Assembly (NCBI RefSeq): GCF_030684315.1
Contig: NC_081366.1
Coordinates: 18,047,410-18,111,409, forward strand
Source: Stegostoma tigrinum
Taxonomy: Eukaryota
Direction of reading: 5' to 3'
DNA length: 64,000 nt
The translations under genes and the position numbers were made by a program. Every line of letters begins with the position of its first letter. The first letter of the stretch is position 1. Below are positions 6,470-63,605 of this stretch, in pieces. The notes beneath the pieces were generated by a model that saw only the letters and a program-made list of their open reading frames with translations, was not told the origin of the DNA and searched no databases.

Positions 6470-6607
6470 GATAGTAGGAACTGCAGATGCTGGAGAATCG
6501 GAGATGGGTCTTTCTGAAAAAGGGCCGAGGCCCAAAATGTCAGCTCTCCGGCTCCTCTGATGCTGCTTGGCCTACTGTGTTCATCCAGTTCTGCAACCTG
6601 TTATCTC
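6470..6607. mobile_element. Mini PLE-terminus derivative (collapsed palindrome)
   Basis: Tail gggaactgcagatgctggagaatc-like sequence joined to the opposite-strand terminus; flanks attatgtcatc/attatttcatc. Confidence 0.65.
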
Positions 6608-6755
6608 ATATTATTTCATCCATTTGTTTACAGATAGCATTACATTCACTACATAATCAACCATAACTGCCAAATATTATTTTGAAAACCATGCATTATG
6701 AATTATAAGTTACATTACAAATTAAAATAATCATTTTGAAAACTCTTATTCCCAC

Positions 6756-6894
6756 CTGATTCCCAATGGGCCAGAGGTTTGACCATTTAAACATCCCTTA
6801 TGTAATAGATGGGCAACAGTGTAGTATGCCATATAAATTGAGGAATCAGAGAGAGACTCTATCAGCCATTGGTCATCCCATGGCAGTCGAGAAC
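6756..6894 (-). CDS. LARS1: LARS1 exon 19
   Basis: [31 protein letters not shown]...PLGI. Confidence 0.96.
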
Positions 6895-7362
6895 CTGAAA
6901 TGAATAAAAGAATATAAATTTATTGAAAAGCTGCAAAACTATTAGCGGATGAACAGTGCGTCCAATGTACAGCGAAACGTTGAAACACTATGTTGAGGAG
7001 GAGATATGATAAAAAACTGAAAAATAGGCAGATGGGGGCTGAAGGCACAAAGATAAGGGCTTTTGAAAGATGAAAGGAAAGTACTGCAGAAGATTCTGGC
7101 AAGGAACTTCAGCAGATGAGTAGAGTTTGCAGACAGTAGTCATCTTTGGGGATGAGCAGAGGTCAAAGTGTAGTCAGCTGATTCCAAATAGAAGAAGGGC
7201 ATATGTTATATCAAATTGAAGAGATTTCTAATGTTGAGTAGGGAAATTTAAAATTTCAGGCTAGAACCATGATGTCTATGATCATGCAAAATGGCAGCAA
7301 TCTTATCCTAACGTTAACTTCATCAGCTGAAAACATTACTTTAATTATGGTTTAAAAAAAAC

Positions 7363-8590
7363 GTGCTGGAAATCAGAAATTGCTAGAAAAACTTGGTAGG
7401 TCGAGCAGCATCTGAGGCGAGAAAGCAGAATTAACATTTCAGGTCCAGTGACCCTTCTTCAAAACTGACCGTAAACAGGCAAAGGTTAGTATATATGCTG
7501 AAGATGGGGTGGGTGAGGAAGAAGGAGTAAATGAAAGGTGGAGATAGAGAGACAGACAGACAAACATTGGGGCAGACTAAGGAATGGGTACAAGTCAGCC
7601 TGGGAAAACGAATAGCTGCTAATGGAGACCATTAGTGGCTGACGATGGGTTGTAAGTAGTAACAGCCCATGTGCTGACGAGGCCTAGTATGGTGGGGTGT
7701 TAGGGTAAGGACATGGGAAGTGGTGTGCAGGCCCTAAAATTATTGAACTTGATATCCAGAAGGTTGCAGGGTTTCTGAGCAGGAAAGGAGGTGTTGCTCT
7801 CCTAGCTTGCGCTGAACTTCGTTGGAGGACTGTAGCAAACTCAAGACAGAGACATTGACCAGGAAACACAATGGTGTGTTGAAATGGCAGGCTACTGGAA
7901 GCTCAGGGTTATTTTTGAGGACCGAATAGAGTTATTCTGCAGAACAGTCACTTAGTCTGCACTTTGTCTCCCCAGTGTAGTGGAGGCCACAATGCGAACA
8001 GTGAATACAGTACACTAGATTGAGTGAAGTGCAGCTAAATTGCCGCTTCACCCAGAAGGTATGTCAGTGACCATGAATAAGGAGGATGGAGGGAGGAAAT
8101 AAATGGGCAGACATTGTACCTTCTGCGACAGCATGAGAAGATGCCATGGGCATGTGGAGCCGTGTCCAGGAAGGAACGGTTCCTTCAGAAGGCTGACAAG
8201 GGAATGGAGGGGAATGTGCGCTGGTGGTGACATCCTGCTGGAAGTGGTGGAAACGGAAATGGATGTGGGCAGTGGTGGAATGTTAGGTGAGCACGAGGGG
8301 ACTCCTATCAGTGTTGTGGGAGTAAGAGATGTGGTGAGAGCCAAAGAGCAGGAGATGGGTGGGACACAGTGGAGGGCCTTGTCAACCACGGTAGTGAGGA
8401 ATCATTGGTTAAGGAAAAAGGTGGGCATTTCAGAAGCCCCCTTGGTGAAGTTGCAATCACTGGACTAGATGTGGCAGGGATGGAGGAACGGAGTGAATGG
8501 AATAGAGTCTTTAAAGGGAGCAGGATGCGAAAATGTGTAGTCAAGGTAACTGCTGGAGTCAGTGGATTTGTGATGGAAGTCCAGCTGATA
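7363..8590 (-). mobile_element. Degenerate Penelope-like element, second family (3' part)
   Basis: Frameshifted RT-thumb and GIY-YIG remnants; hammerhead-like remnant at about 7432-7462 (minus TTGAAGAAGGGTCACTGGACCTGAAATGTTAA). Confidence 0.75.
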
Positions 8591-9270
8591 GCCTCACTAA
8601 ATGAAATATAGCTGGAAGCCTACACCAGGTTGCAATTTATAAGAGACAGTATGCATACAGAAAAAAAACTGTCAAGTTGCTAACACGTGGCAAGTGCAAT
8701 GAGAAAAACCCTGTGCAGACACACACAATAGACACATTTTCAAATGTTGTATTTTTTCCTTCATCTGAATTGCTTCATTAATTCCTCTGGACTGAATGAA
8801 TGATGCAAGGTGCAAGGTTATAGTTCGGCTCCTCCCAAGCAGAAGGATCTTTAGAGAAAAACCTGTCATCTAGTCCTCATTTCCAAATAACCACTCAAAA
8901 TAAGATCAGTGAGTGCCTACAAATAGGTTGATATCTGCTTTAAAAAGTGAATAATACATAACATTATGAGGTGCTAAGGTGGGCACAAGTGTCTCTAGAT
9001 CTGACTTGCATCATTTGGGTTTTTGAAAACAAAACACGGTATCACTTAATCCATACTTTCAGATGTCCTTCATCTTTGCTTTATTCTTTTATAAACTTAA
9101 TTTGTACTAGGAGGATTTATCTGAAAATAAAATGACCTCAACAATCTTTCAAGGTAGGGTTGGTACTCAGAAAACATAATCTCCTTAGACATTAAAAAAA
9201 ACCTTTCCTTATACAGCATTTCTGTACAGCAAGGTCATGAAAAACAAAGGCAGTCAAGTGTTACACTAAC

Positions 9271-9353
9271 CAAGGCCATATGTTCTTGAACAGGCATGGT
9301 CCTGTAACCACTCAAGGCTGGCTTCAAAGTTCCTTCTAGTCTCCTCACAGTAC
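9271..9353 (-). CDS. LARS1: LARS1 exon 18
   Basis: [27 protein letters not shown]. Confidence 0.96.
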
Positions 9354-10005: not shown

Positions 10006-10644
10006 CTACATTGAAAGTGAACATGATTAAAAGAAAGCTACTCTTTACACAAAATCATCAACATTTTCTCAATGTAGTTGAAAGAAACAAGTCTAAGTCA
10101 GCTCCAATGAAGAGTCATCTAGACTTGAAATGTAGCTTGCTCTCTCCACAGATGCTATCTGACCCACTGAGCTTTCCAGCATCTTTTGTTTTCAAGTCTG
10201 AGAAGCAGTTAGATGCTGTGATGGAAAGAAAAAATTACAACTGTAAAGAAAGGTGTAAGATGTACAATGAGGCCTTCTACATCTAGATTTGCTGGTATGA
10301 ATTTCATCAGCGGTGAGCTGCACAATGTTCAATAACCATAAAAACCAGTCTGCTATTTGTAAGAAGGGATGAAAAAGTCATTTAGGGCTCTTATCCTGAA
10401 TATTATCCAGCTGGAAAGTGCACAGAAATAGATTCAGCTGCCATGTTCATCGTGTTTCAAAGCACCCCAGACACTGCCAAAAAACAGCACGTGACGGATT
10501 CGTGAAGCACTGAAACACAGTTAACTTTGGATTCATTCAGTCGTTCGTTTGCTGGGTGGGGATGCGGGGGAAAAACAGCGAGAGCGAGGGAGCGAGCGAG
10601 AGCACGTGAAGATAGATAAACAAACATTTAAAATAAAAACTCAC

Positions 10645-15306: not shown

Positions 15307-15499
15307 AGACAGAAGTCACACAATACCAGGTTATATTCCAACAGGTTTATTTGAAATCACAACCTTTTGCAGCGCTAGTCCTTCATCAGGTGAACTGCTC
15401 AAAAAGTTTGTGATTTCAAATAAACCTGCTGGGCTATCACCTGGTGTTGTCTGACTTCTGACTTCCACCCCATTCCAACACTGGCACTTCCACATCATG
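15307..15499. mobile_element. Mini palindromic element, third family, with hammerhead remnant
   Basis: Arms agaagtcacacaataccagg..caggtttatttgaaatcacaa and ttgtgatttcaaataaacctg..cctggtgttgtctgacttct, plus a 3' tail; minus strand CTGATGAAGGACTAGCGCTGCAAAAGG. Confidence 0.7.
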
Positions 15500-15894: not shown

Positions 15895-17057
15895 TAAGGT
15901 GCGGGTGCATAGTTCCTTGGATGTGGAGTTGCAGGTAGAAAGAGTGGTGAAGAAAGCGTTTGGCATGCCTGCCTTCATTGGTCAGTGCACCGAGTTAGTT
16001 CGGATATCATGTTGCATCTGTACAGGACATTAAACAGGAATACTACATTCAATTGTGATTGCCCTCTTATATGGAAAATGTTGTTAAACTTGAAGAAGTG
16101 TTTGAAAATTTTACAGGAAGTTAAAACCGAAAGAACTGCGGATGCTGTAAATCAGGAACAAAAGCAGAAGTTGCTGGAAAAGCTCAGAAGGTCTGGCTAA
16201 ACCTGTGAAGAAAAATCAGAGTTAACGCTTCGGGTCTGGTGACCTTTCCTCAGAGCTGATGGTAGCTAGGAAATTGTCGGTCCATATGCAGAAAAAAGGG
16301 AGAGGGGAGGGGTAAGGAGTAAATGATAGGATAGAGCCCAAAAAGAGAGAAGAGTAGCTGGACAGACAAAAGGAGTTGATCTGGCTAGGAGGGTAAATGG
16401 GGCCTGTTAGTGGCTAACAACGGGCACTGTGTAATGGTAGACTATGTGGTAACAAGGTCTGATGTGTGGGCTAGGGGGCTAGGACGCTAGGACATGGGAG
16501 AGTTTAGGCCCTAAAATTATTGAACTTGATACTGAGTTCAGGCGGCTGGAGGGTCCTCAAGTGGAAAATTAGGTGTTGTTCTTCCAGCTTGTGCTGAGCT
16601 TCGCTGGAACGCTACAGCAAGCCAGAGACAGATGTTGCCTGGGGAACAGGATGGTGTGTTAAAGCAAAAGATTTGCAAGGATGTTGCCAGGGTTGGAGGG
16701 TTTGAGTTATAGGGGAAGACTGAATAGGTAGGAACTTTTTATTCACAGGAGCAACAGAGTCTGAGTGGTGACCTAAACTAGAGGGCATAGGTTTAGGGTG
16801 AGAGGGGAAAAGATTTAAGAGGGTCCTGAGGGGCAAATTTTCGTGCAGAGACTCGTGTGTATGGAATGAGCTGCCAGAGGAAGTGGTACAGATGGATACA
16901 ATGACATCATTAAAACACATAATGGATGAGTACAATGAGCAGCAAGGATTTAGAGAGATAATGACCAAATGCTGGCAAATGGGACTAGATTAGGATATCT
17001 GGTCAGCATGGACGAATTGGACTGAAGGGTCTGTTTGCATTCTGTGTGACTCTATGC
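15895..17057 (+). mobile_element. CR1 3' fragment split by a nested PLE
   Basis: QVERVVKKAFGMPAFI remnant; 3' end gggtctgttt...gactctatg. Confidence 0.75.
16098..16666 (-). mobile_element. Penelope-like 3' fragment (second family) nested in a CR1 LINE
   Basis: Terminus homologous to the 7363 element; hammerhead remnant at about 16222-16254; interrupts CR1 sequence. Confidence 0.75.
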
Positions 17058-17326: not shown

Positions 17327-17371
17327 CTGAAACAAAACCACACATAACATGAGGCAAGAGTAACAGATGAA

Positions 17372-19274
17372 GAGATAATGGGAACTGCAGATGCTGGAGA
17401 ATCCAAGATAACAAAGTGTGGAGCTGGATGAACACAGCAGGCCAAACAGCACCCGAGGAGCACAAAAGCTGACGTTTTAGGCCTAGAACCTTCTACAGAG
17501 ATGGGGATGCAGAGAGGGTTCTGAACTAAATAGGGAGAGGGGGGTGGTGGATCGAAGATGAATAGAGGAGAAGATAGGTGGAGAGGAGACAGACAAGTTA
17601 AAAGGGGCGGGGATGGAGTCTGTAGAGGTGAGTATAGGTCGGGGGGGGATGGACAGGTCAAGGGAGCGGGATGAGGTTAGGAGGAAGGGAATGGAGGTGT
17701 GGCTTGAGGTGGTGGCGGAGGGGGGAAAATAGGTGAGAGGAAGAACAGGTTAGGGAGGTGGGGACGAGCTGGACTGGTTTTGGGATGCAGTGGGTGGAGG
17801 GGAGATTTTGAAGCTTATGAAATCCACATAGGAACCCTGCAGCCCAGTGGTATCAAAGCGGAATACGAGTTGCTGTTCACGCAACCTTCAGGTGGCATCA
17901 CTGTGGCATGGCAGGAGGCCCAGGATGGACATGCCATCTAAGGAATGGGAGGGGGGAGTTGAAATGGTTCACGACTGGGAGGTGCAGTTGTTTATTGCGA
18001 ACCGAGCGGAGGTGTTCTGCGAAGCTGTCCCCAAGCCTTTGTTTGCTTTCCTCAATATAGATGAAGCCACAACAGGTACAGCGGATGCAGTATACCACAT
18101 TGGGAGATGTGCAGGTGAACATCTGCTTGATGTGGAAAGTCATCTTGGGGCCTGGGATGTGTGTGAGGGAGGAGGTGTAGGGACAAGTGTAGCACTTCCT
18201 GCGGTTGCAGGGGAATGTGTCTGGTGTGGTGGGGTTGGATGGGAGTGTGGAGCGGAGAAGGGAGTCCCGGAGAGAGTGGTCTTTCTGGAAGGTAGACAAG
18301 GGTGGGGATGGAAAGATGTCATTGGTGGTGGGGTCAGATTGTCGATGGCGGAAGTGTCTGAGGATGATGCTTTGTATCGGGAGGTTGGTGGGGTGGTATG
18401 TGAGGATGAGGGGGATTCTCTTTTGCCGGTTATTGCAGGGACGGGGTGTGAGGGACTTTCCCCTGCAACCACAGGAAGTGCTACACTTGCCCCCACACCA
18501 CCTCCCTCACACACATCCCAGGCACCAAGATGACTTTCCACATGAAGCAGATGTTCACCTGCATATCTGCCAATGTGGTATACTGCATCCGCTGTACCCG
18601 GTGTGGCTTCCGCTACACTGGGGAAACATAGCGGAGGCTTGGGGACCGCTTTGCAGAATACCTATGCTCGGTTCGCAACAAACAACTGCACCTCCCAGTC
18701 GCGAACCATTTCAACTCTCCCTCGCATTCCTTAGATGACATGTCCATTATGGGCCTCCTGCAGTGCCACAACGATGCCACCCGAAAGTTGCATGAACAGC
18801 AACTCGTATTCCGCCTGGGAACCCTGCAGCCCAATGGTATCAATGTGGATTTCACAAGCTTCAAAATCTCCCCTCCCCCCACTGCATCCCCAAACCAGCT
18901 CAGCTCATCCCTGCCTCCCTAACCCGTTCTTCCTCTCACCTATCCCCTCCTCCCAACTCAAGCCGCACCTCCATTCTCTTCCTCCTAACTTCATCCTGCC
19001 CCCTTGACCTGTCCGTCCTTCCCGGACTGTCCTATCCCCTCCCTACCTCCCCACCTATACAGGCTCCATCCCCGCCGCTTTAACTTGTCAGTCTCCTTGC
19101 CACCTATGTTCTCCTCTATCCACCTTCGATCCGCCTCCCACTCTCTCCCTACTTATTTCAGAACCCTCTCCCCATCCCCCTTTTCTGATGAAGGGTCTCG
19201 GACCGAAATGACAGCTTTTGTGCTCCTAAGATGCTGCTTGGCCTGCTGTGTTCATCCAGCTCCACACTTTGTTA
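17372..19274. mobile_element. Neptune-type Penelope-like element, inverted two-arm insertion (copy 1, degenerate)
   Basis: Left arm on minus to about 18452, right arm on plus from about 18455. Both carry Zn-linker CNRRKCYTC and GIY-YIG (VVYC..C..C...YI/YTG) remnants. 11-bp TSD TAACAGATGAA at 17361-17371 and 19275-19285. Confidence 0.9.
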
Positions 19275-19667
19275 TAACAGATGAAAACTTTATTTGGTTT
19301 AAAATAGCAGTTAGTTCCAGGAAGCAGAAGTTACACCAGTCACATTAAGTTTTATTCATATGAATTTCAATCGCACCAGAAGTTCAAATTTAGCAAATAT
19401 TTTTAAAAGAAGATCATGGGTAAAAGACAGAAGAAAATATTTGAAGCAATTACTTTTGATGAAGAATAGAAAGTTTTGGTCACATTCTTAGTAAAAAGTA
19501 GTCAGTATATATTTAGTACTGTATTATAGAATGCTATCACAAGTTACTTTTACCTGCAGAGTAGACCACTTGGTCTGTCGAACCTACTCTGCCAATGATC
19601 TGAGATAATAAAATGTGAGGCTGGATGAACACAGCAGGCCAAGCAGCATCTCAGGAGCACAAAAGCT

Positions 19668-19695
19668 GACGTTTCGGGCCTAGACCCTTCATCAG
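19668..19695 (-). ncRNA. Minimal type I hammerhead ribozyme motif (PLE-borne), sense to LARS1
   Basis: Minus strand CTGATGA-A-GGGT-CTAG-GCCC-GAAA-CG-TC: intact CUGANGA, GAAA and UH core. Confidence 0.75.
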
Positions 19696-19963
19696 AGAGG
19701 GGGATGGGGAGAGGGAACTGGAATAAATAGGGAGAGAGGGGGAGGCGGACCGAAGATGGAGAGTAAAGAAGATAGGTGGAGAGTGTATAGGTGGGGAGGT
19801 AGGGAGGGGATAGGTCAGTCTAGGGAAGACGGACAGGTCAAGGAGGTGGGATGAGGTTAGTAGGTAGCTGGGGGTGCGGCTTGGGGTGGGAGGACGGGAT
19901 GGGTGAGAGGAAGAACCGGTTAGGGAGGCAGAGACAGGTTGGACTGGTTTTGGGATGCAGTGG

Positions 19964-19970
19964 GTGGGGG

Positions 19971-20003
<33 letters not shown>

Positions 20004-20015
20004 GGGGGGGGGGGG
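19964..20015 (+). repeat. Near-pure poly-G run
   Basis: About 50 G with rare interruptions, inside the left arm of PLE copy 2. Confidence 0.9.
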
Positions 20016-21750
20016 AGCTGAGCTGGTTGTGTGGTGCAGTGGGGGAAAGGGACGAACTAGGCTGGTTTAGGGATGCAGTAGGGGAAGGGGAGATTTTGAA
20101 ACTGGTGAAGTCCACGTTGATACCATTAGGCTGCAGGGTTCCCAGGCGGAATATGAGTTGCTGTTCCTGCAACCTTCTGGTGGCATCATTGTGGCAGTGC
20201 AGGAGGCCCATGATGGACATGTCATCTAGAGAATGGGAGGGGGAGTGGAAATGGTTTGCGACTGGGAGGTGCAGTTGTTTGCTGCGAACTGAGCGGAGGT
20301 GTTCTGCAAAGCGGTCCCCAAGCCTCCGCTTGGTTTCCCCAATGTAGAGGAAGCCGCACCGGGTACAGTGGATGCAGTATACCACATTGGCAGATGTGCA
20401 GGTGAACCTCTGCTTAATGTGGAATGTCATCTTGGGGCCTGGGATAGGGGTGAGGGAGGAGGTGTGGGGACAAGTGTAGCATTTCCTGCGGTTGCAGGGG
20501 AAGGTGCCGGGTGTGGTGGGGTTGGAGGGCAGTGTGGAGCGAACAAGGGAGTCACGGAGAGAGTGGTCTCTCCGGAAAGCAGACAGGGGAGGGGATGGAA
20601 AAATGTCTTGGGTGGTGGGGGTCGGATTGTAAATGGCGGAAGTGTCGGAGGATGATGCGTTGTATCCGGAGGTTGGTAGGGTGGTGTGTGAGAACGAGGG
20701 GGATCCTCTTAGGGCGGTTGTGGCGGGGGCGGGGTGTGAGGGCTGTGTTGCGGGAAATACGGGAGACGCGGTCAAGGGCGTTCTCGATCACTGTGGGGGG
20801 AAAGTTGCGGTCCTTAAACAACTTGGACATCTGGGATGTGCGGGAGTGGAATGTCTTATCGTGGGAGCAGATGCGGCGGAGGCGGAGGAATTGGGAATAG
20901 GGGATGGAATTTTTGCAGGAGGGTGGGTGGGAGGAGGTGTCTTCGCTCCACACTGCCCTCCAACCCCACCACACCCGGCACCTTCCCCTGCAACCGCAGG
21001 AAATGCTACACTTGTCCCCACACCTCCTCCCTCACCCCTATCCCAGGCCCCAAGATGACATTCCACATTAAGCAGAGGTTCACCTGCACATCTGCCAATG
21101 TGGTATACTGCATCCACTGTACCCGGTGCGGCTTCCTCTACATTGGGGAAACCAAGCGGAGGCTTGGGGACCGCTTTGCAGAACACCTCCGCTCAGTTCG
21201 CAACAAACAACTGCACCTCCCAGTCGCAAACTATTTCCACTCCCCCTCCCATTCTCTAGATGACATGTCCATCATGGGCCTCCTGCACTGCCACAATTAT
21301 GCCACCCGAAGGTTGCAGGAACAGCAACTCATATTCCGCCTGGGAACCCTGCAGCCTAATGGTATCAATGTGGACTTCACCAGTTTCAAAATCTCCCCTT
21401 CCCCTACTGCATCCCTAAACCAGCCCAGTTCGTCCCCTCCCCCCACTGCACCACACAACCAGCCCAGCTCTCCCCCCACCACCCACTGCATCCCAAAACC
21501 AGTCCAACCTGTCTCTGCCTCCCTAACCGGTTCTTCCTCTCACCCATCCCTTCCTCCCACCCCAAGCCGCACCCCCAGCTACCTACTAACCTCATCCCAC
21601 CTCCTTGACCTGTCCGTCTTCCCTGGACTGACCTATCCCCTCCCTACCTCCCCACCTATACTCTCTCCACCTATCTTCTTTACTCTCCATCTTCGGTCCG
21701 CCTCCCCCTCTCTCCCTATTTACTCCAGTTCCCTCACCCCATCCCCCTCT

Positions 21751-21778
21751 CTGAAGAAGGGTCTAGGCCCGAAACGTC
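21751..21778 (+). ncRNA. Minimal type I hammerhead ribozyme motif (PLE-borne)
   Basis: CTGAAGA-A-GGGT-CTAG-GCCC-GAAA-CG-TC. Confidence 0.75.
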
Positions 21779-21894
21779 AGCTTTTGTGCTCCTGAGATGC
21801 TGCTTGGCCTGCTGTGTTCATCCAGCCTCACATTTTATTATCTTGGAATTCTCCAGCATCTGCAGTTCCCATTATCTCTGCCAATGATCTGATC

Positions 21895-22990
21895 TGATTA
21901 TTCCACATTCCCACATACTCCCAAAAACTTTTCACACTTTGCTCATCACGAATCTAGTCACTTCTGTCTTAAAAATATTCAAAGATTCAACTTTGCGGAA
22001 GTTCTAAAGACACTCCACACAAGGGAAACAAAAACAAAACATCCTCATCTTGCATGGGTAACTCTATACTTATAGACAATGACCTCTCATTCTTGTTTCA
22101 TCCACAAGAGAAATCATCTTTCCCACATGCATCCTGTCGAATCCTCTCAGTATTTTGTGTTTCAATTAAGTTAAACAAGGAGTGTCTTTGGAATTTGCTT
22201 CTTCAAAGTTGAATCTTTTAATATTTTTAAGATAGAAGTGACTAGATTCTTGACGAGCAAAGGGTGCATGTGGAATAATCAGATCAGTCATAATGCTGTT
22301 TATTGGCAGAGCAGGTTTGATGGACCAAGTGGCCTATTCCACGTGGACTCTCACTAGTTCCCTGCATAACCGAGTCTTGATCTTCCTACTTTTGTATTCA
22401 ATTCCCTTCACAACACATGGCATAATTCTGCTTGCTTTCTTAAGTGTTTGCGATTTCTGTATTCTAGCCTTTTGTAAATCCACACGAGGACACTCAGAGC
22501 CCTCTGTATTTCAGAACTCAGATTTCTCATCATTTAGGTAAATTGCATATTTTACTTTTCCTACCAAATTGGACAATTTCATATTTTGTCCCATTATACT
22601 CCATTTACCAGACTTTTGTCCACTCTTAATCTATTTAAACCCCTTTGCAGCTTCTTTATGCATCACAAATTTCTTTCTTACTTCTTTTTGTGAGATCAGC
22701 AAAATTTAGTTACCATACTTTTGGTGTCTGACCAGCTCCACATCTATTGACTCCAGCTTCTCGCATCTGCAATGCTTACTGTCTCCAAGCTGTTTAGCCA
22801 CAGCACATTAATTCCTCAAAAAACTCAAATAAGTTTGCGAAACATGATACTCCTTACACAAAGCCACGCTGACTCCACCTGATCACCATTAACTTGTCTG
22901 AAAGCCCTGTTATTACTTGTTAAATAATTGTTTCTAACATCTTCCCTATGACTGACATTAAGCTAACTGGCCTGCAGTTTCCTGCCTTCT
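21895..22990 (-). mobile_element. Old CR1 fragments
   Basis: Patchy similarity to CR1 RT and 3' region. Confidence 0.5.
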
Positions 22991-24200: not shown

Positions 24201-24350
<150 letters not shown>

Positions 24351-25899: not shown

Positions 25900-26571
25900 C
25901 TGTTAGAGTTCAGACAATATGAAATTAAATTCCACAATGTTGAATCTAGATGGCTTAAAAACTATGAAATCTTTATGAAACCTTTATGAAACAAACAAAT
26001 TTTCAGTTACTGATCAGTGAGTGTAATGAATCATTTTGTATTTTAACTCCCACTAGAAACTCCTATCCCAACGAGGATCGGAGTTAGGATTTAGATAACA
26101 AATTTATTGACCTCATTGTTGTTTCAGAATCAGGATTTTCAGTAGGCCCTCACTGAGTCAGATTGCAGAGGAAAGTTCTTTCTACACTCTCCAACTATGT
26201 TGCTCAACTTCAACCAAGTGATAAAATTCCATACTCTATCAGCAGCTTTTGTTCCCATCTTTCAGATAAGTCATTCTCAAAAGCCAGGTTGCCAATTTGT
26301 GAATATTGGAACTTGTGTGGGGAAACTTATACCCACTTAAAAATCAGATTAACATAGATTCCTTCCTTAGGGAGTGAAGTGCTTTTCTATTAAGATCCAC
26401 TTCGAAGTCCCAATTAAAATATGACCACATACAAACTCAAATGTCTGTTTTAAATTCCTGACTTATATCTGGGTTTTATTACCTTAAAAAAAAGACATTT
26501 AAATTATTACAAGGGAAGACAATAAAAGTTCAGAGTTTTATGTTTAATCCGTCGAGAGGCACAAGACATAC

Positions 26572-26733
26572 TTTTAATCCCATTTTCTTCAAATCCTGGA
26601 TAGCCATCACTGGAAAGTAATCAAGCCAATATTCAGCCTCTGCAAACTTCACAATCTCTTCATCAGATAGACCCAGAGATTTCATGATGATCCACTGGAA
26701 CTTAGCTCCACCACTCTTAGCAGCAGCTTTACT
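26572..26733 (-). CDS. LARS1: LARS1 exon 6
   Basis: [22 protein letters not shown]...DLKKMGLK. Confidence 0.96.
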
Positions 26734-30904: not shown

Positions 30905-31990
30905 GGAACATGATTAGCCTATTTAGTCCACAGAGCCTGCTTAAACATTCCAAATCATGGCTGATTTATCTCCTCAATGCCATTTAACCCTGTACAATCT
31001 CCATATCCCTGGAAGTTTAGTCTCCGTGATACCAGCAACTTCTGTTTTGAACCCTACTGAATGAATACTCCAAAGATTCATCACCTGGGGTGACGAAATT
31101 CCTCATCCCAGTACTTAAATTGCCTGATTATCCTGAGATAATGTCCCTGGTTCTAGAAATATATTCAGAAGAAATATCTGAGATAACAAGGTGCAGAGCT
31201 GGATGAACGCAGCAGGCCAAACAGCATCTGAGGAACAGGAAAGCTGACGTTTCAGGTCCCGACCCTTCAGGAAATCTTTTTTCTGAAGAAGGGTCGGGAC
31301 CAGAAATGTCAGCTTTCCTGTTCCTCTGACGCAGCTTGGCCTGTTGCATTCATCCAGCTCTACACCTTGTTATCTCAGATTCTCCAGCATCGGCAGTTCC
31401 CACTATCTCAGAACAAATATTTCATCTTTTTTCAATGTGTGATGCCCTATAAGATTTCCCTAAGTTTCAATGAGATCACCACTCGTTCTTGAAAGAGAAC
31501 ACAGAATACAGACCCAGTTTCCTCAATCCCTCCTCAAAAAACATCGTCATTCTCAGGATTAATCTGATGAACCTCCATTTAACTCCCTCTACGGCAAGTA
31601 TATCCTTCCACAGAGACCAAACTAGAGAAAGTACGGAGGTCCCACCATGGTTCTATACAACTGCAACAAGACATCTTAACTTCAGTACTTAAATTCCCTT
31701 AAAATGAATGACAATGTATTGTTTGCTTCTCTAATGGTTTGCATCTGTCAGTTAGCTTTCAGTGACTCAGACAATGGCACCTAGATTGTTTTAGACATTT
31801 GCACTTTCCAATGACTTACAATTTAATAAATAAACTGCTTTTTTTGTTCCAAAGTGAATAATGTCATGCTTATTTACATTATATTCTGTTTACTATATTG
31901 TAGTCAATTCACTTAACTTGCTACATCCTTTTAAAACCTCATTGCACCTGCTTCACAATTTGTGTCACCAACCAATTTGATACCATCAGC
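30905..31990 (-). mobile_element. Old CR1 fragment hosting the 31178 mini element
   Basis: Patchy CR1 3' similarity. Confidence 0.55.
31178..31407. mobile_element. Mini palindromic PLE derivative
   Basis: Two inverted termini, each with a hammerhead remnant, plus a tail on one side; 13-bp TSD tcagaa(g/c)aaatat. Confidence 0.8.
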
Positions 31991-32639
31991 AAGTGTGGAG
32001 GTTTGTTCTAGAATTCAGAACAAGGAGAGAGTCACAGTAGCCTCGAACATTAATTCTAGTTCTCGCTCCATAGGTACTGTCAGACTTGCTGTGCTTCTCC
32101 AGCACTTTGTGTTTGTTTCAGATTTCCAACATCTGTTGTGTCTTGCTTTTAATTTTATATATGACCTCTTGCATCATTCCTCATCAGAAAAGGTTTTTGA
32201 ACGTCCAAATATACATCAACTGGTTCTCCTTTGTCTATAGTACAAGTGACATTTTCAAAAATTCCAAAAAAAGTGAAATAAGACTTCCCTTTCTGAAATT
32301 CATTCTGATTCTTCCTGATTTTGCAGTTCATTTCTTAATGCTTAGAATCTATACCAAAGAATGTGAAACTAACATTTTCCCTCCTGTGAGAATCAAGTGA
32401 CAATTTTTATCAATCTGTGCTCCTTTAAAATTGTTGGAGGAGCTGCCTACTCAATGTACGCAGTTTTCAAACAAGAATACAACTCCACCTGTTTTTGTCC
32501 CTGGTTTCTGGAAAGAAATATTCCTTCGAGATTAGAAAACAAAAGGAACAGTTTGCCAACATTCCAGCATGTTTTTAGGCAGAATCTCTATCACAAGGAC
32601 TCTAGGCAAAAAAATGAAAAGAATAAAAGTAAACCATAC

Positions 32640-39494: not shown

Positions 39495-39690
39495 GACTTC
39501 AAAAACTGCAGATGCTGGAGTCAGAGTCAATACAGCGTGGAGCTGGAGGAACACAGCAGGTCAGGCAGCATCAGAGGAGACGTTTCGGATTTACACCCTT
39601 TATCATCAGAACTGATGAACGGTCGGCTTTTCTGCATCTCTGATGCTGCCTGAGCTGCTGCGTTCCTTCAGCTCTACACTGTACTGACTG
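39495..39690. mobile_element. Mini palindromic PLE derivative in LARS1 intron 1
   Basis: gagctggaggaacacagcaggtcaggcagcatcagag is inverted against ctctgatgctgcctgagctgctgcgttccttcagctc. Confidence 0.7.
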
Positions 39691-42517: not shown

Positions 42518-42613
42518 AAAAGTCAGAAATCACATTGCACCAGGTTATAGTCCAGCAGGCGCCGTGCGATTTCTGACTTTGTCCACCCCAGCCCAACACC
42601 GGCACCTCCTCAT
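42518..42613. mobile_element. Collapsed palindromic element, third family
   Basis: aaagtcagaaatc...gatttctgacttt with the same tail as the 15307 copy; flanks TAAAACTG at 42508 and 42614. Confidence 0.65.
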
Positions 42614-48377: not shown

Positions 48378-48571
48378 AGAGATAATGGGAATGGCAGATG
48401 CTGGAGAATCTGAGAAAACAAAGTGTGGAGCTGGATGAACACAGCAGGCCAAGCAACATCTTAGGAAGCACAAAAGCTGACGTTTCAGGCCTGAAGGGTC
48501 TCGGCCTGAAACGTCAGGTTTTGTGCTCCTGAGATGCTGCGTTCATCCAGCTCCACACTTTGTCATCTCTC
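48378..48571. mobile_element. Mini palindromic PLE derivative
   Basis: Inverted termini; flanks agtccatagta/agaccatagta. Confidence 0.8.
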
Positions 48572-49239
48572 AGACCATAGTAATAATTTTTTTTTTAAAA
48601 ATCATTTGTGGATGTGAGTCATTCATAAGGCCAACCTTTCATTGTTCATACTGAATTACCTTTGATGATCTTATGGAGATCAAAGAAGTGCTGGTTTTTG
48701 AAAATATTTAAAATTACATTGGTGTTTGAAGGTTCAGATTGAGACGCTGTGGGGTTAGGTAGTATTCAACTTGAATTATTGGGCACTCCTTCTAAAAAGC
48801 AGTTAAAACGAAGCTGAAGGAAGACATCTATAAAATTCCTGCTGTCACCCATTGCGACTGCTGACTAGCAGGTTGTGCTTCTGGGCTCTTTATTTTGGAA
48901 AATGTCAGTTTGGTGAGAGTTATGGGGAGGCAGTTACCTGTCCAATAGCAGTAAAGCAGCTGTGAAGGTATCAGTTAGGACTTATTCAGGCTACTCTCCT
49001 AATATCATCTGGAAGTGCCTTCCCTTTTCATATACATTTGCAGCACCCATCCTTTGTGGTGGAGATGCTCGCCACTCAAGGCTGTTTGGTTCAGTAGGCA
49101 CAATATGCTGCCCTGCCCCGCACAGCACAGACAGCATTACAGTCTTCACTGTACGGCATTGTTACAATATTTAAAAGATATTTGGTTAAGTACGCGAAAA
49201 GGCAAGCTGGTGGGACTAATTTGACCGAAGTTGTATGAG

Positions 49240-52815: not shown

Positions 52816-52844
52816 TCACACAGAACTAAGTAGATTTATTTTTT

Positions 52845-53157
52845 AACACTGTGCAGCTGGAGGAACACAGCAGGCTGGACAGTATCAGGGGAGCACGAAA
52901 GCTGATATTTTAGATTGGGGCCCTTCTTCTGAAATGGGGGAGGGGGAAGGGAGCTCTGAATTAAATAGAGAGAGGAGGGGTGCGGATGGGGAAGATAGGT
53001 GGGATAGTGATAGGTGAGTGTGGGTAGGCAGCAGTGGGGATTGGTCAATTAGATGGGAGAGGAGACACAGGCCAAGGAGGCGGGGATGAGAGGAAGGGTT
53101 GGTCATGTGTTGCTGGGGTGGGGAGATTTTGAAGCTAGTAAAGTCCACATTGAAACC
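52845..53157 (-). mobile_element. Older Penelope-like terminal fragment
   Basis: Encodes FNVDFTSFKISP, followed by a purine-rich terminal region and a degenerate hammerhead. Confidence 0.75.
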
Positions 53158-53159
53158 CT

Positions 53160-54240
53160 TCCTATTCATATACCCATCCAGATGCCCAGAGATGTTGTAA
53201 CTGTACCAGCCTGCACCACTTCCTCTGGCAGTTCATTCCATATATGCAGCACCCTCTGCATGAAAATCTTGCCCCTTAGAACCCTTTTACATCTTTCCTT
53301 CCCCCCCCCCCCCCACAAACCTTAAACCACCCCACTTCAGGGAAAAATCCTTGTATCTTCACTGTATTCATACTACTCATGATTTTATAAACTTCTCTAA
53401 GGTCACCCCCTCATCCTCTGATGCTTTGGAGAAGATAGCCGCAGACTATTCAGCCTCTCTCTATAGCGTAAACCCTCCAATCCTGGAAAAATCCTTAAAT
53501 CTTTTCAGAACCCTTAACTTTCATAATATCCTTCCCATAGCAGGGAGACCAGAAATACATGCAGTATTCCAAAGTGGCCTAACCAATGTCCTGTACAGCT
53601 ACATGACCTTCCAACTCCTATACTCGATGCACTGACTAATGAAAGCAAGCGTACCAAACTCAGTCTTCACTATCAAATCTACCTGTCACTGCACTTTCAA
53701 GGCTTCTTTGTTCAGCAACATTCTCTAGAACCTTACCATTAAGTGTATAAGTCCTTCCCTGATTTGTCTTTCCAAAATGCAGCATCTCATATTTATCGAA
53801 ATTAAACTCCATCTGTCACTCCTCGGCCCATTGGCCCATCTGTTTGAGATCCTGTTGTACTGTGAGGTAGCCTTCCTTGCTGTCTAATGCACCACCAGTT
53901 TTGGTGTCATCTGCAAACTTATTAACCATACTTCTTATATTCACATCCAAATCATTCATATAAATGACAAAAAGCAGTGAACCCCGCACTGATACTTTTG
54001 GCACACACTGGTCACAGGCAACCTGTCTGAAAAGCAATCCTCCACCACCACCCTCTGTCTTTTACCTTCGAGCCAGTTCTTAATCCAAATAGCTAGTTCT
54101 CTCTGTATTTTGTGTGAGCTAACTTTGCTAATCAATCCACCATGATGAACTTGTTGAACACCTTACTGAAGTCCATATAGATCACATTCACTGCTCTGCT
54201 CTCGTCAGTCCTCTTTGTTAGTTCTTCAAAAAACTTAATC
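53160..54240 (-). mobile_element. CR1 LINE fragment in SRA1 intron 3
   Basis: LLFVIYMNDLD...KFADDTK remnant and CR1 3' region. Confidence 0.85.
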
Positions 54241-55886: not shown

Positions 55887-57999
55887 AACTGAGACATAAA
55901 GAACTGAGGCACTATGTTCAAAATGTTGATGACGGTCCAGTGAGTGTACTGTTCTTCAGTGAAAATGCAGCAATGGATCAAAATTAGAAAATATTGACAG
56001 AAGGAATAACAATAACACTTATTAATGATTCCTGTATTCAGCAGGAAAGAAAGCATGTATTCAGGCTGTACTCTATTTTAATACTGTTGAAGAGTTTACA
56101 AAAGCACTTTAGCCTTAAAAAAAATGGACTGAGCTTCTCAATGACTTGATCATTCTTGAGCTGCCAGGAAGCTGCTACAATTGTCAAATCTTGTTTGTGC
56201 GTTCTGTTTGGAAGGCAAGTGTGTTGACTATATAAGTTTCCTCTGCCACAGGGAATACGGTGAAGCTTCAATGCTACAAACACATAGGACTCTTCCAGAG
56301 AAGAGTTTCATCTTTTACTTGGCTTGTCTTCCTGACATCTATAGAAATGAGCTTTCGATTTAATTTTGCTCCAAGTGATTCAAAACTTGTGGCTTTCCTG
56401 CTGCATTTTATATTTTTAAAATGATTATTAAAGATTCAAGGTGGAGAGTCATCTTGAAAATTTTGGGTTGCTGTGTGTTTAAAGTGTTTCCCTTTATAGG
56501 AGAAAAACTTTTTCTTTCATTCACGTTCATCTGTGTATGCCATTTTCCTTATTTGGAAAGTGTGATTGAATGTGATGAGGTTAGCTGCGTGATTGGCCTA
56601 ACCAGAGTTCCATTTAAGGTGAAGGTTGTTTTCCTTCCCTTTTCCTAATCAAACTTAGCTTTGGATGTACTGTGGAAAAGTTAGGAGCAAAGCATTGCCC
56701 TCTTCTTCTGAAAAATCTGTCCAGATATTTTCTTGCAATTAATTGTAACTGTACAACTGCATTTTTAACCTTTTAACTGTTTTCATAATTACTCAATTTA
56801 TGAAGTCACTTGTAATGTAGGATGCTGATACTTTCATAGCCAATTTCCCACCATTCCTGGCCTTGGATGTAGAAGAAGGATTTGTCTCCTTGCTCTCCAT
56901 CCCTGACCAAGAATAATGTCATTGCCTTTTCAATTAATAAAAGAAGAATGTGGTTAGTATTTTCTTATGATTCCTGCGAGAGAGGCTTTGCAAAATGCAA
57001 TCAGAATCCTCATCACAATTAAGTGTTCTTTGAATTTTTGTTCATATCATAGTGATCATGTTTCTAATTTTGCCAGATAGCAAAAGAACAAAATGGTTGT
57101 GGGTTGAATGTATTAGCGAATGTGCTGTATCTGAGTATCCTGGATACATGGATAGGGAAAGGGAGCTGGCAATAAGGGTCAGTCTATCTTCATTTTATCC
57201 TGAAGTTGTGAAAGTGATATCGAGTGTATATTAACACGTCAAAGGGATATTTATTTCATTCTCTTCCATGAAGTTGAGGAAGGCAAATCTCTACCGGTCC
57301 ACACAAACACGTACATTGTAGCATAAGTCTGCAATTCCATCAGAAGTCTGACTCTTTATAGAAAGGATGAAGAAAACCTGGCCTTATAGCATTAACTACA
57401 GCTCTACATCCAATTGAGGTTATTGAACATGGATTAGTTTTAAAGAAATGCAATGGATTCTGGCCTTTGGACTTCTTTGAAGCCTTTTTAATAAATAGAT
57501 CAGCATAAAAGCTATGCTCATGCATGTCAGTTATTAAGAAATTCTATTGAGCTTAAGTGACCAATGGAGAATCCTATTTAGTTTGAATTGATCACTTTTT
57601 AGAGTTTGATTCAGTTTAGTATGTTTTTCTCAGATTGAATTTAAACATTGAACAAAATCAATTGATAAAATTTATCGTTAACCCTGGAACATTTGAAATT
57701 TCAGGAATTAGGTTTTATCCAGTGACCATAATACATAGTAAGAACTTTGTTATCTTGATTACTTTTCAACAGCAAATATGACCTGATCTGTTGAGCCTTG
57801 CTCATATCCAGTGCCATTCATTTTCAGTTGTGTTTCTAACTTGAGGCATTGTGTTTTTGTTTTTCTCCCAGCAGAAACAAATAGCTGCACATAATTAGTG
57901 ATAATGGGAACTGCAGATGCTGGAGAATCCAAGATACGCTGCACATATTTAGATTTTTTTTCTGTAGTTTGCTACTTTTGCTGCTGCCGTCTCACTTTT

Positions 58000-58125
58000 T
58001 TGTGAGGAAGGGTCACTGGACCCGAAATGTTAACTCCGATTTCACTTCACAGACGCTGCCAGGCCTGCTGAGCTTTTCCAACAATTTCTGGTTTATAGCA
58101 TCTGCAGTTCTTTTTGGTTTTTATC
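58000..58125 (+). mobile_element. PLE terminal fragment (second family)
   Basis: GTGAGGAAGGGTCACTGGACCCGAAATGTTAAC hammerhead remnant plus terminus. Confidence 0.6.
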
Positions 58126-58489
58126 TCACTTTTCTTTTGCTGGATGTTGATGGTTAAACTTCATAGAATGGATCCCTACCCAGAAATGAATGCTGTCAGT
58201 GGATCATGGTTAGGTTTTAGATTAAATTAAGGATCAAACTTTCTCATGGAAAGCTGTGTGTCGTGTTTTATTTTATGCGGGGGGTGGGGAGTGGTGGCAA
58301 TCTGAGGCGTGTTGAAATGTTGGGCTGTGTGACCTCATTTTATGAAGAAGTGCTGGGTTGACGCTCAGCCTTCCTGAGGCACAAAAGTCTGCAATGAAAG
58401 CGACACCTGAAGGAGACTCCTGTCTCTATTATAACATATTATAGGCCAGTAAATGATGAATGGGAAATCTGGTGCAAGATAAAAGCCCA

Positions 58490-58900: not shown

Positions 58901-58996
58901 TTTTCATCCCGGTCACAATTGTGGGCAAAGGCTGAAGAGCTTTTCTTCCTTTCAGGACGAAGGCTGGCCTAAAACAGGCAGCTTTTCAGACTTAGA

Positions 58997-59341
58997 AGAT
59001 AATAAAATGTGAGGCTGGATGAACACAGCAGGCCCAGCAGCATCTCGGGAGCACAAAAGCTGACGTTTCAGGCCTAGACCCTTCATCAGAGAGGGGGATG
59101 GGGAGAGGGAACTGGAATAAATAGGGAGAGAGGGGGAGGCGGACCGAAGATGGAGAGTAAAGAAGATAGGTGGAGAGTAGAGTATAGGTGGGGAGGTAGG
59201 GAGGGGATAGGTCAGTCCAGGGAAGACGGGCAGGTCAAGGAGGTGGGATGAGGTTAGTAGGTAGATGGGGGTGCGGCTTGGGGTGGGAGGAAGGGATGGG
59301 TGAGCGGAAGAACCGGTTAGGAAGGCAGAGACAGGTTGGAT
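58997..59341 (-). mobile_element. Young Penelope-like terminal fragment (same family as 19604-21875)
   Basis: Nearly identical to 19604-19943. Confidence 0.9.
59062..59089 (-). ncRNA. Minimal type I hammerhead ribozyme motif (PLE-borne)
   Basis: Minus strand CTGATGAAGGGTCTAGGCCTGAAACGTC. Confidence 0.7.
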
Positions 59342-59344
59342 ACA

Positions 59345-62300
59345 GACTCATCCATGTGCATCAGATGTTGAAAATTAATCTAGTCCCATTTGGCCCATAA
59401 CCCTCTTTCAACCCTTTGCATTCATATACTCGTCCAGATGTCTTTTCAATGTTGTAATTGTACCAGCTTCTACCACTTCCTCTGGCAGCTCACTCCATAC
59501 ACGCACCACCTTCTGTGTGACAAAGTTGCCCCTCAGGTTCCTTTTCTTTCAAATCAGACCCCTCTCAACTTAAACCTATGCCCTCCTCTACCCTGGGCAA
59601 AAGGCCTTGGCTCTTCACCCTACTGATGCTGCTCACCATTTTATAAACCTCTATTAGGTCATGCCACAGCCTTTGACACTCAAGGGAAAAAGGCCCAGCC
59701 TATTCAGCCTCACCCGATACCTCAAATCCTCTAATCCTACTTGAAACCATTCCTGTAAATCACTTCTGCCCCCTCTCTTTCCAGTATATTCACATCCTTC
59801 CTGAAATGTGGTGTCTACAACAATAGACAATATCCCAGCTGAGTTCTAATAAGGATCTTCTACAAATGTGCTTCTAAGACTTTGCTGATTTACATTTATA
59901 AAGCATTAGAATTATTTTACAGCACAGAGACAGGCTATTCCCTTGACACTAACAGATTCAACACAAAATAATTTTTTGTATCCCTCCGCATATCTCTTTA
60001 TTCCCTCACACGTTTCTCTTGCTTCCCCTGAACACACACTATTTGTCTAGACCACTCTATTTAGGAGTGAGTTCCATGTCCAAACCACTGGTCTGAATAA
60101 AGAGGTTTCTTCTGTGTTTCTCATTAGATTTATTTGTATCTCATGTTTACAACCTCATCCACAACTGGAAAAAACTTCTATCTAACATATCAATCTCCAA
60201 CAAAACCTTGAAGAGCTCTCTCAGGACTCCTTCTGCTAGTTCTTTTCTGGAATATACAGCGTCAGACTGTTCTGTTTATCCTGTGATGGTCTCAGAATAG
60301 TTACAAAACAGAATGAGGCCATTTAGTCCTAAATCTGTACTGACCTGCTCGAGCAACTCCATAAGACCGTAAGATACAGAAACTGAATTAGGCCACTTGG
60401 CCAATCATGTCTGAACCACCATTTGGTCATGTCTGATATGTTCCCTACCCTATTCTTCTGTCTTCTCTCCAAAACTCTAATTCCCCTTAATAATCAAGAA
60501 CCTATCTATCTTTCTTAAAGACACTCAATGACTTCACCTCCACAACCATCTGCGCCAATGAGTTCCACAGATTCGCCACTGTCTGGCTGAAGAAATTCTT
60601 CCCCATCTCAGTTGTAAAGCCCTTTGGTCCTAGTATTTCTACTTGGGAAACATTTTCTCTACATTCACTGTATCCAGGCCTCTTAGTATTCTGCAGGTTT
60701 CAATCAGACACTGCCCCTGCCCCCCCACCCCATCCTTCTAAACTGCATCAAGTACAGACCTCGAGTACTCAAACTCTCCTCCTTTGAAAAGCACTTCATC
60801 CCAGGATGATTCTTGTAAACCTACACTGGAACCCTTTTAATTCCAGCACGTCCTTCCTTAGAAACGGGGCCCAAAACTGCTCTCAGTATTTCAAATGCAG
60901 TCTGACCAGAACCTTATACAACCTCAGCAGTACATATCTGCTCTTGTGTTCTAGTCCTCTTGAAGTGATTGCTAACATTAAATCAGCTTTCCAAAATGCA
61001 AACTGAACCTGCCTGTGAACCTTAAGTGAATCCTGAACTTGGAATCCCAAGTCCCTTTAAGCTTCAGATATCTGAACTCCCTCATTGTCCTGCAATTTCT
61101 TTCTCTTTCATTCCCTTTTAGAAGCCTCAGTTGACCCTGGCTCCACCACACTCCCACACACTACATTCAGCTCCCAACTGCTCATTGGATAATAAGTTTT
61201 TTTATCCTCACCTTACCTTTGATTCTTTCGTCATTCACCTTAAATTGATATCCTCTGCTTCTCAACCCTTCCATCAATGAGAATCATTTCTCTCTATCCA
61301 GGCCCTGCAGGATTTTCAGCTCATTGTTTGATCAAATTTCCTCTTGAAGGGGGACAGTCCCATCTTTCCCAGTGAACCAGTACAAATTAAGTGGATGCTT
61401 TTTAATTTTGATTATTTAGCATCAAGGCAGGTGTCTCATCCACATAATGGTGGAGCAGGGACCTTGTGGCAAAGTTGTACAGCATGGAAACAGACCCTTT
61501 GGTTCAACTCGTCCATGCTGACCAGATATCCGATACAGATCTGGTCCTATTTGCCCGCATTTGACCCCATCCCTCTAAACCCTTCCTATTCATATACCCA
61601 TTCAGATGCCTTTCAAATGTTGTAATCATACTAGCTTTCACCACTTCCTCTGGCAGCTCATTCCACACATGCACCACCCTCTGCATGAAGAACATTGCTG
61701 CTTAGGTCCCTCTTATGACTCTATTCTCCCTGTCACCTTAAACCTATGCCCTCTAGTTTTGCACCCACCCAAACCCAGGGAAAAGACCTTGTCCCTTTAC
61801 CCTATCCATGCACCCCATGATTTTACAAGCTGCTATAAGGTTGCCATGATTTTATAAGCCTCTATAAAGCTCCCCCTCAGTTTCTGATGCTCCAGGGAAG
61901 ATAGCCCCAGCCTGTTCAACCTCTCCCTATAGCTCAAGCCCTCCTAAATAGATTAACTGGATAGATGATGTTTCTATTTGTGCAGGGTCCAAACCCAGAG
62001 CCCACAAATACATCTTCAATAATTAACTCAGGAGTCATACCAAGGAATGGTAGACTAGATACTTGCTGCTGCAAGAAATAAGACCATAAGGCATAGGAGT
62101 AGAAATAGAACAGTCAGATCATTGAGTCTAAAGTGCTGTTCAATGAGATTGAGGGTGACCTGATAATCCTCAACTCCAATTTCCTGTCTTTTCCCCATAA
62201 CCTGTTATTCTCTTGCTGATTAATAACCTATCTCAGCATTGAATGGACTCATTGACCCTGCCTTTACAGACTTCTGCGGTAAAGAATTCCACAGAATCAG

Positions 62301-63320
62301 TACCCTCTCAAAGAAGAAATTCATTCTCATTTCTATTAAATGGGTGACACCTTACTCTGAGAATATGCCATTTGGACCTAGACTTTCCCAGAAGGGGAAA
62401 CGACATTGCTACAACTACGCTGTCAATTCCCCTAAAAATTGTGAATCTTTCAATAAGGTCATGTCTCATTTTTCAAACCCTGATGAGTACGGGCTCAGCT
62501 CACTTAATCTTGCAATATGGTCCCTCCAACATCTGGGGGCAAACTACTGAAGCTTCTCTGGATTGCCTTCAGTACCAGTTTGTTTTTAATCAAAATTGAT
62601 TTCTTTATTAAATCAAAAGATGAGGCAAGGATGAACACCTTGATGAATGTGTTTCCAAAGCTGTTAACTGTGTTACAATTGGGGAGTAGGTATCAATCCA
62701 CCACTTTGCACAAATTTCAGAACTCACTCAGACAAAATTTCAACCATTAGCAGTCTGCCAGAAGTTACTGCTGAAACATCCAATATCTTTCCTTAGATAA
62801 GGGGAACAGAGGTGTTCACAGTACTCCAGCTGTGATCTCATTAATGTACTGCATATTTTAGCAAGGCTTCCCTATTTTTACAGAGATAGCGAGAGCTGCA
62901 AATGCTGGAGTCAGTGTCAAAACAGTGTCGGAGCTGGAGAACCACAGGAGGTCAGGCAGCATCAAACGAGCAGGAAGGTCAACATATCAGGTCAACAAAC
63001 CTAAAATGTTGACCTTACTGCTGCTCTGATGCTGCCTGACCTCCTGTGTGCCCCCAACTCCACACTATTCCCTATTTTTATACACTATTCCCTTCGAAAT
63101 AAAAGCAAACATTCCATTAGCCTTACCTATTAACGACTGAACTTGTCTGCTGGCTTTTTGTGAAGCATGCCCAAGAACCCCCAAATTTCTTAGTGTTGCA
63201 GATTTCTGTAGTTTTTCCACATTTCATAACATCCAGCTCTTATTAAATAACATTCTTCCTGTCAAAGTGCATAATCTCATAATTCCCCTTATTTTATCCA
63301 TCTCCCAAGCTTTTGTCCAC
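59345..63320 (-). mobile_element. Pile of CR1 3' fragments in the putative SPCS3-like intron 1
   Basis: Repeated ccacttcctctggcagctcattcc motifs; FFMQRVVHVWNELPEEVV remnant (61504-61695). Confidence 0.75.
62881..63067. mobile_element. Mini palindromic PLE derivative
   Basis: Inverted termini; perfect 13-bp TSD TTCCCTATTTTTA (62868-62880, 63068-63080); inserted in a CR1 remnant. Confidence 0.8.
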
Positions 63321-63414
63321 AATTGAGATGCAACCAGCTTAGATACCTTTTAAGGGGAAATTAAGTAAGGAGATGAGGGTGAAAGGAATAGAGTGAAGTA
63401 TTGTTACAGTAAAA

Positions 63415-63605
63415 TATTGCTGTAAATCTGAAATAAAATACTGGAGCAACTCAGCAGGTCTGGCAGCATCAGTAGAGAGAGAGAAAGAGTAAATGTTTCA
63501 ATTCCGATATCACTTTGCTATGTATGCTGAAGAGGCATATCAGAGTTGGAACAGTAACTCTTTTCTCTCTCCACAGATGCTGCCAGACCTGATGAATTTC
63601 CCTGG
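63415..63605. mobile_element. Mini palindromic PLE derivative (second family, old)
   Basis: caggtctggcagcatc is inverted against gatgctgccagacctg. Confidence 0.6.

Follow-up and report, generated by a model that had tools for sequence, protein, structure and literature searches.

Short inverted stubs of Penelope-like elements in Stegostoma tigrinum DNA have arm ends clustered at the 5' edge of the hammerhead

Insertions of Penelope-like elements (PLEs) have been described as a unit consisting of an inverted truncated copy, a tail of 30-40 nt at one end and a short duplication (PMC8557442, PMC3846280, PMC2377424). Both PMC8557442 and PMC11167929 list the origin of the inverted repeats and of the one-sided tail as an unsolved question. 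In vitro, the Anolis element PAc cuts and extends both strands and starts reverse transcription at two sites bounding the tail, with no need for hammerhead cleavage and with a requirement for RNA beyond the tail (PMC11167929). Here, we analysed a 64,000-nucleotide stretch of Stegostoma tigrinum DNA (contig NC_081366.1, positions 18,047,410 to 18,111,409; hereafter the window), in which an original prediction made from the letters alone had placed eight palindromic insertions built from inverted PLE termini. These short insertions, or stubs, are real and of a known kind, their architecture having already been published for PLEs; what is new relative to the literature searched is that the 5' ends of their arms are not random and lie at a fixed boundary behind a TATA-like box.

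The insertions are given below, with their boundaries placed by eye on alignments. Positions within the element refer to the young long family A copy at 19601..21879, the tail end of which (21879) is taken as 0, negative values running toward 5'. Two-armed insertions carry no strand of their own; the tail-only insertion and the single arm were absent from the original prediction.

6467..6609 (locus 6470): family A stub, a tail-only arm (6467-6506, minus) joined to an untailed plus-strand arm whose start precedes the hammerhead core by about 5 nt; target site duplicated at 6459-6469 / 6610-6620, 11 bp with 1 mismatch
15309..15498 (15307): family B palindrome; untailed left arm with a whole minimal hammerhead (core 15389-15361, minus), tailed right arm beginning in stem II; marginal duplication
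31176..31410 (31178): family A palindrome; untailed arm reaching about -124, tailed arm about -130; duplication 13 bp with 1 mismatch
39497..39689 (39495): older family A palindrome; both arm ends near the hammerhead start, right arm with an internal deletion or fold-back centre; marginal duplication
42520..42613 (42518): short-armed family B stub lacking a hammerhead, one arm consisting of about 40 nt of body and the other of about 15 nt and the tail; duplication of 8 bp without mismatch
48378..48574 (48378): family A palindrome of the subfamily of the long copies (88-90%); arm ends at -115 (tailed) and -124 (untailed); duplication 11 bp with 1 mismatch
62882..63067 (62881): older family A palindrome; arms ending within stem II, at about -113 and about -111; duplication of 13 bp without mismatch
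63410..63598 (63415): decayed family C palindrome; both arm ends near the hammerhead start; no duplication found
57897..57936, minus strand: tail-only 40-nt family A insertion; significant duplication, 15 bp with 1 mismatch
58000..58128, plus strand: single tailed family C arm beginning at the hammerhead 5' edge; perfect 10-bp duplication
17371..19276 (17372): long copy of family A, head to head; arms of about 1.08 kb (tailed, minus) and about 0.83 kb (untailed, plus); perfect 11-bp duplication
19601..21879 (19604): long and young copy of family A; arms of about 1.34 kb (untailed, minus) and about 0.94 kb (tailed, plus); perfect 17-bp duplication, in part overlapping the tail

Six of the eight predicted loci (15307, 31178, 39495, 48378, 62881 and 63415) are clear local inverted pairs scoring 78-237 bits, with none in 10 block shuffles of the sequence, and are similar in size (185-235 bp), whereas 42518 is short-armed and 6470 is not a true palindrome. 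The tail stands on one side only in all eight, as had been proposed, as well as in both long copies, and has decayed in 39495 and 63415. Flanking direct repeats of 8-13 bp had been claimed for most loci and, when compared with 3000 random placements given an equal slack of +/-6 nt, were significant in five (6470, 31178, 42518, 48378 and 62881, the last perfect as stated), marginal in 15307 and 39495 (p=0.073) and absent by this test from 63415; five or more of eight would arise by chance with P=9e-10, so that the repeats exceed chance level. The duplications, including those of the other listed insertions, vary in length (8, 10, 11, 11, 11, 13, 13, 15 and 17 bp). The description of the arms as hammerhead-bearing did not hold: a descriptor of the minimal hammerhead as defined in PMC4209133, allowing 2 mismatches and loose enough to give 3-7 matches per shuffle, matched only two of the 16 arms of these eight loci (31283, plus; 15389, minus), and no hammerhead sequence was found in 42518. 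An Rfam scan returned no hammerhead, only sub-threshold matches, 7 of the 10 weak ones being microRNA models on these palindromes, and folding of six sense termini gave no significant structure (z -1.5 to +2.2). Cores with 0 mismatches occur at 21751, 19695 and 59089.

The long copies share the design of the stubs, as the original prediction had it, and provide the link to a PLE. The relevant features of the reference copy are:

20944..21420, plus strand: 3' end remnant of the PLE open reading frame (ORF), with a CX4CXXC linker and a GIY-YIG endonuclease
21717..21723, plus strand: TATA-like box, its first T 34 nt before hammerhead C3; predicted promoter role
21747..21750, plus strand: preferred 5' boundary of copies, from contig loose ends and arm ends, and predicted transcription start
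21751..21778, plus strand: minimal type I hammerhead core up to the predicted cut site, 0 mismatches
21844..21879, plus strand: 36-nt tail, between two 3' termini at 21843 and 21879/80

The PLE origin of the family A termini is established because the arms of the long copies run on into an ORF of GIY-YIG/reverse transcriptase (RT) PLE type. The remnant matches PF01541 with E 3.6e-4, just under the curated cut-off, and shares 94% identity with a protein of Stegostoma and 91% with one of Rhincodon; its relatives are full-length proteins of 889-894 aa with PF00078 (RT), to which both long copies map in tblastn. A CX2-5CxxC linker before GIY-YIG is the mark of Neptune and Nematis and is also found in Naiad (PMC8557442). 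By protein match and linker, the latter being common to Nematis and Naiad, family A is classified at the sequence level as an endonuclease-containing (EN+) PLE of Neptune type. Its copies have the features of the published insertion unit, namely a minimal hammerhead in the terminal repeat, an inverted truncated copy, a tail at one end and a short duplication. Of the three families proposed to be unrelated, A and C match each other's copies in profile searches (E 1e-12 to 1e-5) and B (15307, 42518) alone is unrelated to them. Family B has four arms and no ORF in the window; its hammerhead and 37-nt tail suggest a PLE origin.

The 5' ends of the arms are concentrated in a narrow interval. All 12 arm ends of the six palindromes fall in a range from about -111 to about -133, which spans the hammerhead start (-128) (family B being rescaled to its hammerhead and the older arms approximate), a clustering with P=1e-5 under a uniform range of 60-400 nt or 5e-4 under 60-200 nt, with one draw per element. 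Arms are either 0.8-1.3 kb long, as in the long copies, or end at the hammerhead edge, as in the six palindromes, with none between; no PLE palindrome with intermediate arms was present among the 9 local inverted pairs of up to 900 nt. The junctions are neither shared nor random, the two outcomes that had been foreseen, and cluster at the hammerhead 5' edge.

The contigs came from four runs and were aligned to the family A end (21560-21900) at 80% likeness; X1 and X2 belong to a single study, possibly with the window's own sample, and X5 and X13 to two studies of a related organism. Contig depth, being no measure of copy number, was left out; the counts are incomplete for X1 and X2, and the tables cover 24 of 1488 rows for loose ends and 15 of 129 for joints. 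Among the loose ends listed, the 5' end at position 21750 (-129) is the largest in all four runs (1396, 1393, 565 and 361 contigs) and exceeds both 3' ends in X1/X2 (981/973 at 21843, 770/786 at 21880). The sequence before 21750 agrees among contigs at only 0.36-0.37, with median lengths of 255, 255, 255 and 133 in the four runs, and is A-rich, whereas upstream PLE sequence is C/T-rich; points of subfamily divergence differ in showing agreement of 0.58-0.9 and being mostly short. The continuation before 21750 is flank or inverted arm, not upstream PLE sequence. The plurality letters are rich in A ahead of the 5' boundary and rich in T beyond either 3' end; a target preference that is symmetric, or partner arms left unaligned, may account for this.

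This boundary lies about 30 nt downstream of the TATA-like box. The motif occurs 33 to 36 nt before the core in seven of eight long arms with a score of at least 6 of 7, is the top match within 150 nt (shuffle P 0.0005-0.043) and is common to families A and C despite the differing sequence between. About 30 nt downstream of it, family A has what we take to be a start-like motif rich in pyrimidines, and family C one resembling an initiator. The box is absent from the stubs, the one chance-level score, at 15307, lying inside the opposite arm. An extra G at the 5' end is a signature of cap copying; 3 of 12 rows listed (335 further rows exist) have one before 21747 or 21749, which may be a copied cap. 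Two other causes of the pile-up were rejected: hammerhead self-cleavage, the predicted cut site (21778) being about 29 nt downstream, and a 3' splice-like AG (~21728), which is 21 nt away with mixed flanks. A conserved AG after a pyrimidine tract, resembling a splice acceptor, is found at 21720-21728 in all six family A long arms and overlaps the TATA-like box region.

We consider it probable that the stubs were made singly by two-primer run-off at the predicted 5' end of the RNA, the products being joined head to head. Two reverse transcriptases would be primed at two staggered nicks on opposite strands, with tail-end priming from one nick and body-end priming from the other, on a transcript starting at about 21747-21750. 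Starts at the upstream copy of the two sites would give complementary DNAs (cDNAs) of at most about 130 and about 95 nt, and starts at the downstream copy kb-long arms; two cDNAs would then join head to head, and a tail-only arm would represent a tail primer stopping at the other start site. With upstream start sites about 95 and 130 nt from the cap, run-off would yield the 185-235 bp class. Retroviral strong-stop DNA is an analogue of such short run-off cDNA. Among the ten two-armed copies, the untailed arm extends further toward 5' in five, the tailed arm in two, and the arms are about equal in three; that either may be longer fits two independent primers. One nick per start site also fits the one-sided tail and the tail-only arms of 6470, 57897 and the 21750/21849 joint, seen in three of four runs (4, 5 and 4 contigs). 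Stubs have neither the box nor the RNA beyond the tail that PAc needs, and therefore should not move again; they are likely dead ends. This supports the suggestion in the original prediction that they are the shortest products of an inverted PLE integration mechanism.

Several observations weigh against this account. The motif is missing from one of the eight long arms (16253, P 0.58), and the eight are related, representing about 4 lineages. About 4 of the 12 arms stop within stem II, before reaching the core start by 13-17 nt, a pattern suggestive of stalling; the exact value of 21750 is set partly by subfamily mismatches just upstream; and the extra G may have other explanations, e.g. microhomology. 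A 21750/21750 joint, which the model expects, is absent from the 15 of 129 joint rows listed, X1/X2 counts being incomplete. In the same rows the top joints connect 21842-21847 to 21876-21880 on opposite strands, with 152 contigs in X1, 148 in X2 and 0 in X5/X13, and have no certain explanation. Candidates are a staggered cut that did not separate and so left tail-to-tail pairs, tandem units in the same direction, insertion of the element into its own end, or a quirk of reporting. No body/body or tail/tail joints are among the rows listed. Transcription of D. virilis Penelope begins 46 nt upstream of a 75-nt intron whose end is at the hammerhead, so the start need not adjoin the ribozyme.

The arms ending in stem II are also what would be expected if the same two-primer stubs owed their pile-up to stalling of the reverse transcriptase, or processing, at a folded or protein-bound hammerhead, and the PAc protein is reported to influence hammerhead folding (PMC11167929). 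We regard this as unlikely though not negligible, given that the main pile-up lies on the 5' side of the complete core, a point reached only once the structure has been traversed, and about 29 nt from the predicted cut site in the 5' direction, and that the TATA-like motif stands 30 nt upstream in families A and C alike. Self-priming by fold-back of one template, which has been proposed for rotifer PLEs with an antisense template, would agree with small palindromes at the centres of 48378 and 39495 and with those reported at inverted junctions (PMC3846280). On the other hand, if one tailed cDNA folded back, its tailed arm should always be the longer, which is true of two copies in ten, and such folding cannot yield a tail-only arm joined to a long untailed arm as in 6470 and the 21750/21849 joint; an antisense-template form may exist, and we hold fold-back as a whole to be distinctly improbable.

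To an even smaller degree do we credit a self-propagating non-autonomous palindromic class, retrozyme-like or SINE-like (short interspersed element), mobilised by the PLE protein, the other possibility raised in the original prediction. The similar size of the six palindromes and the recurrence of a 21750/21787 joint in all four runs (7, 7, 8 and 4 contigs) would favour it, as would head-to-tail joints from 21880 to 21748, a 133-nt unit (9 and 9 contigs). Further head-to-tail joints run from 21880 to 21778/21779, where the hammerhead cut is predicted, and contain 1-3 additional bases (3 and 4 contigs); such joints are possibly rare retrozyme-like tandems or copies of self-cleaved RNA. However, no two of the eight stubs share a centre, they derive from at least five subfamilies, sister arms are mutually nearest in five of seven pairs and of the same subfamily in the other two, agreement at the 21750 loose ends is only 0.36, and the best head-to-head joints listed reach at most 8 contigs per row. 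Because the hammerheads are on opposite strands and mostly broken, a tandem dimer cannot form, and the stubs lack both the box and the RNA beyond the tail that PAc needs (PMC11167929). With differing centres, arms mostly without an intact hammerhead, no upstream box and no dominant shared junction among the public contig joints listed, self-propagation is unsupported and the stubs are not a self-propagating family; X1/X2 counts are incomplete and young near-perfect palindromes assemble poorly, so that a small shared family may exist. DNA-transposon miniature inverted-repeat elements (MITEs) unrelated to PLEs, which have symmetric terminal inverted repeats and a fixed duplication length, deserve practically no credence even though the stubs are short, palindromic and flanked by direct repeats, as family A arms are continuous with the PLE ORF, the ends are asymmetric and duplications range from 8 to 17 bp, and for families A and C this origin is refuted.

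Returning to the run-off of paired primers, we would tentatively extend it to PLEs at large as integration of strong-stop cDNA: transcription would start at the hammerhead behind a TATA box, paired enzymes would fire once at the tail site and once at the body site from opposite nicks, and the genome would record every outcome, namely stubs joined head to head, arms on their own, inserts of the tail alone and, should the joints of 152 and 148 contigs be real, tail-to-tail pairs of body end and tail end from an unseparated staggered overlap. If true, this would provide a full geometric model for the inverted terminal repeats and the one-sided tail. The fixed 5' boundary behind a TATA-like box, the tail-only arms and the free order of arm lengths make the PLE inversion problem directly testable. 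For annotation, the stubs belong under PLE debris and not under MITEs, microRNA hairpins or retrozymes.

Other PLE sequence is scattered through the window, which is rich in introns and belongs to a gene for cytoplasmic leucyl-tRNA synthetase (exon match 26560-26721, E 7e-22). The tail-only insertion at 57897 and the single arm at 58000 lie 60 nt apart with separate duplications. Short single arms also occur at 5272-5337, 10098-10195, 32015-32138 and 22724-22785; those at 10098 and 32015 seem to start near the hammerhead start, the matching long copy not being in the window. Longer one-sided arms occupy 7360-8600, 16131-16560, 52842-53160 and 58996-59340, the last being 96% identical to the 19604 copy and broken off at 59340. 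The 19604 copy is nested in another repeat (19541-19600, 21880-22340) that forms an inverted pair at 21933-22266 and that we take to resemble the 3' end of a CR1-type long interspersed element (LINE); a LINE RT remnant is present at 34161-36170. An annotated Stegostoma 'uncharacterized protein' is a PLE remnant whose frame passes through the 3' untranslated region into the hammerhead, and is likely a mis-annotated gene. Pattern scans returned no viral loci, one metagenome locus (a 21-nt match only, in prokaryote-like sequence) and 36 prokaryote loci (longest extensions 22-37 nt), the last two taken as chance.

In L1 twin priming two nicks each prime a cDNA, and retroviral minus-strand strong-stop DNA is a short cDNA begun at an internal site and extended to the 5' end of the RNA; here, in contrast, both primers would copy the same segment, giving a palindrome, and the short cDNA would be integrated. 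The literature searched, with Repbase, Dfam and some subscription works outside its scope, describes no preferred PLE 5' boundary and no strong-stop stubs. The stubs share with the EN+ PLE insertion unit (PMC8557442, PMC3846280, PMC2377424) the head-to-head inverted copy, the tail at one end, duplications of 8-10 bp and non-coding inserts flanked by pseudo-long terminal repeats (pLTRs), but their arms shrink to 40-130 nt without an ORF and have clustered 5' ends, whereas the available published descriptions give variable truncation only. PAc, a Poseidon element, likewise has two internal start sites bounding the tail, cutting and extension of both strands and AT-rich targets; family A is of Neptune type, and the portions of that paper available assign no site to each nick, explain no inversion and describe no run-off stubs (PMC11167929). 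Solo and opposite-strand PLE hammerheads, dispersed in thousands and read as truncated PLEs, are another counterpart, although the Schistosoma opposite-strand pairs are about 100-700 bp apart whereas the cores here adjoin or are cut, and the account, as available, contains no analysis of anatomy, tail or boundary (PMC4209133). Non-LTR retrozymes are also short, non-coding and pLTR-derived with a type I hammerhead (PMC7229834; bioRxiv 10.64898/2026.07.22.740005); they are, however, head-to-tail tandems with an intact, complete hammerhead in each unit, while the stubs, with two of 16 arms passing the descriptor, are inverted singletons with broken cores.

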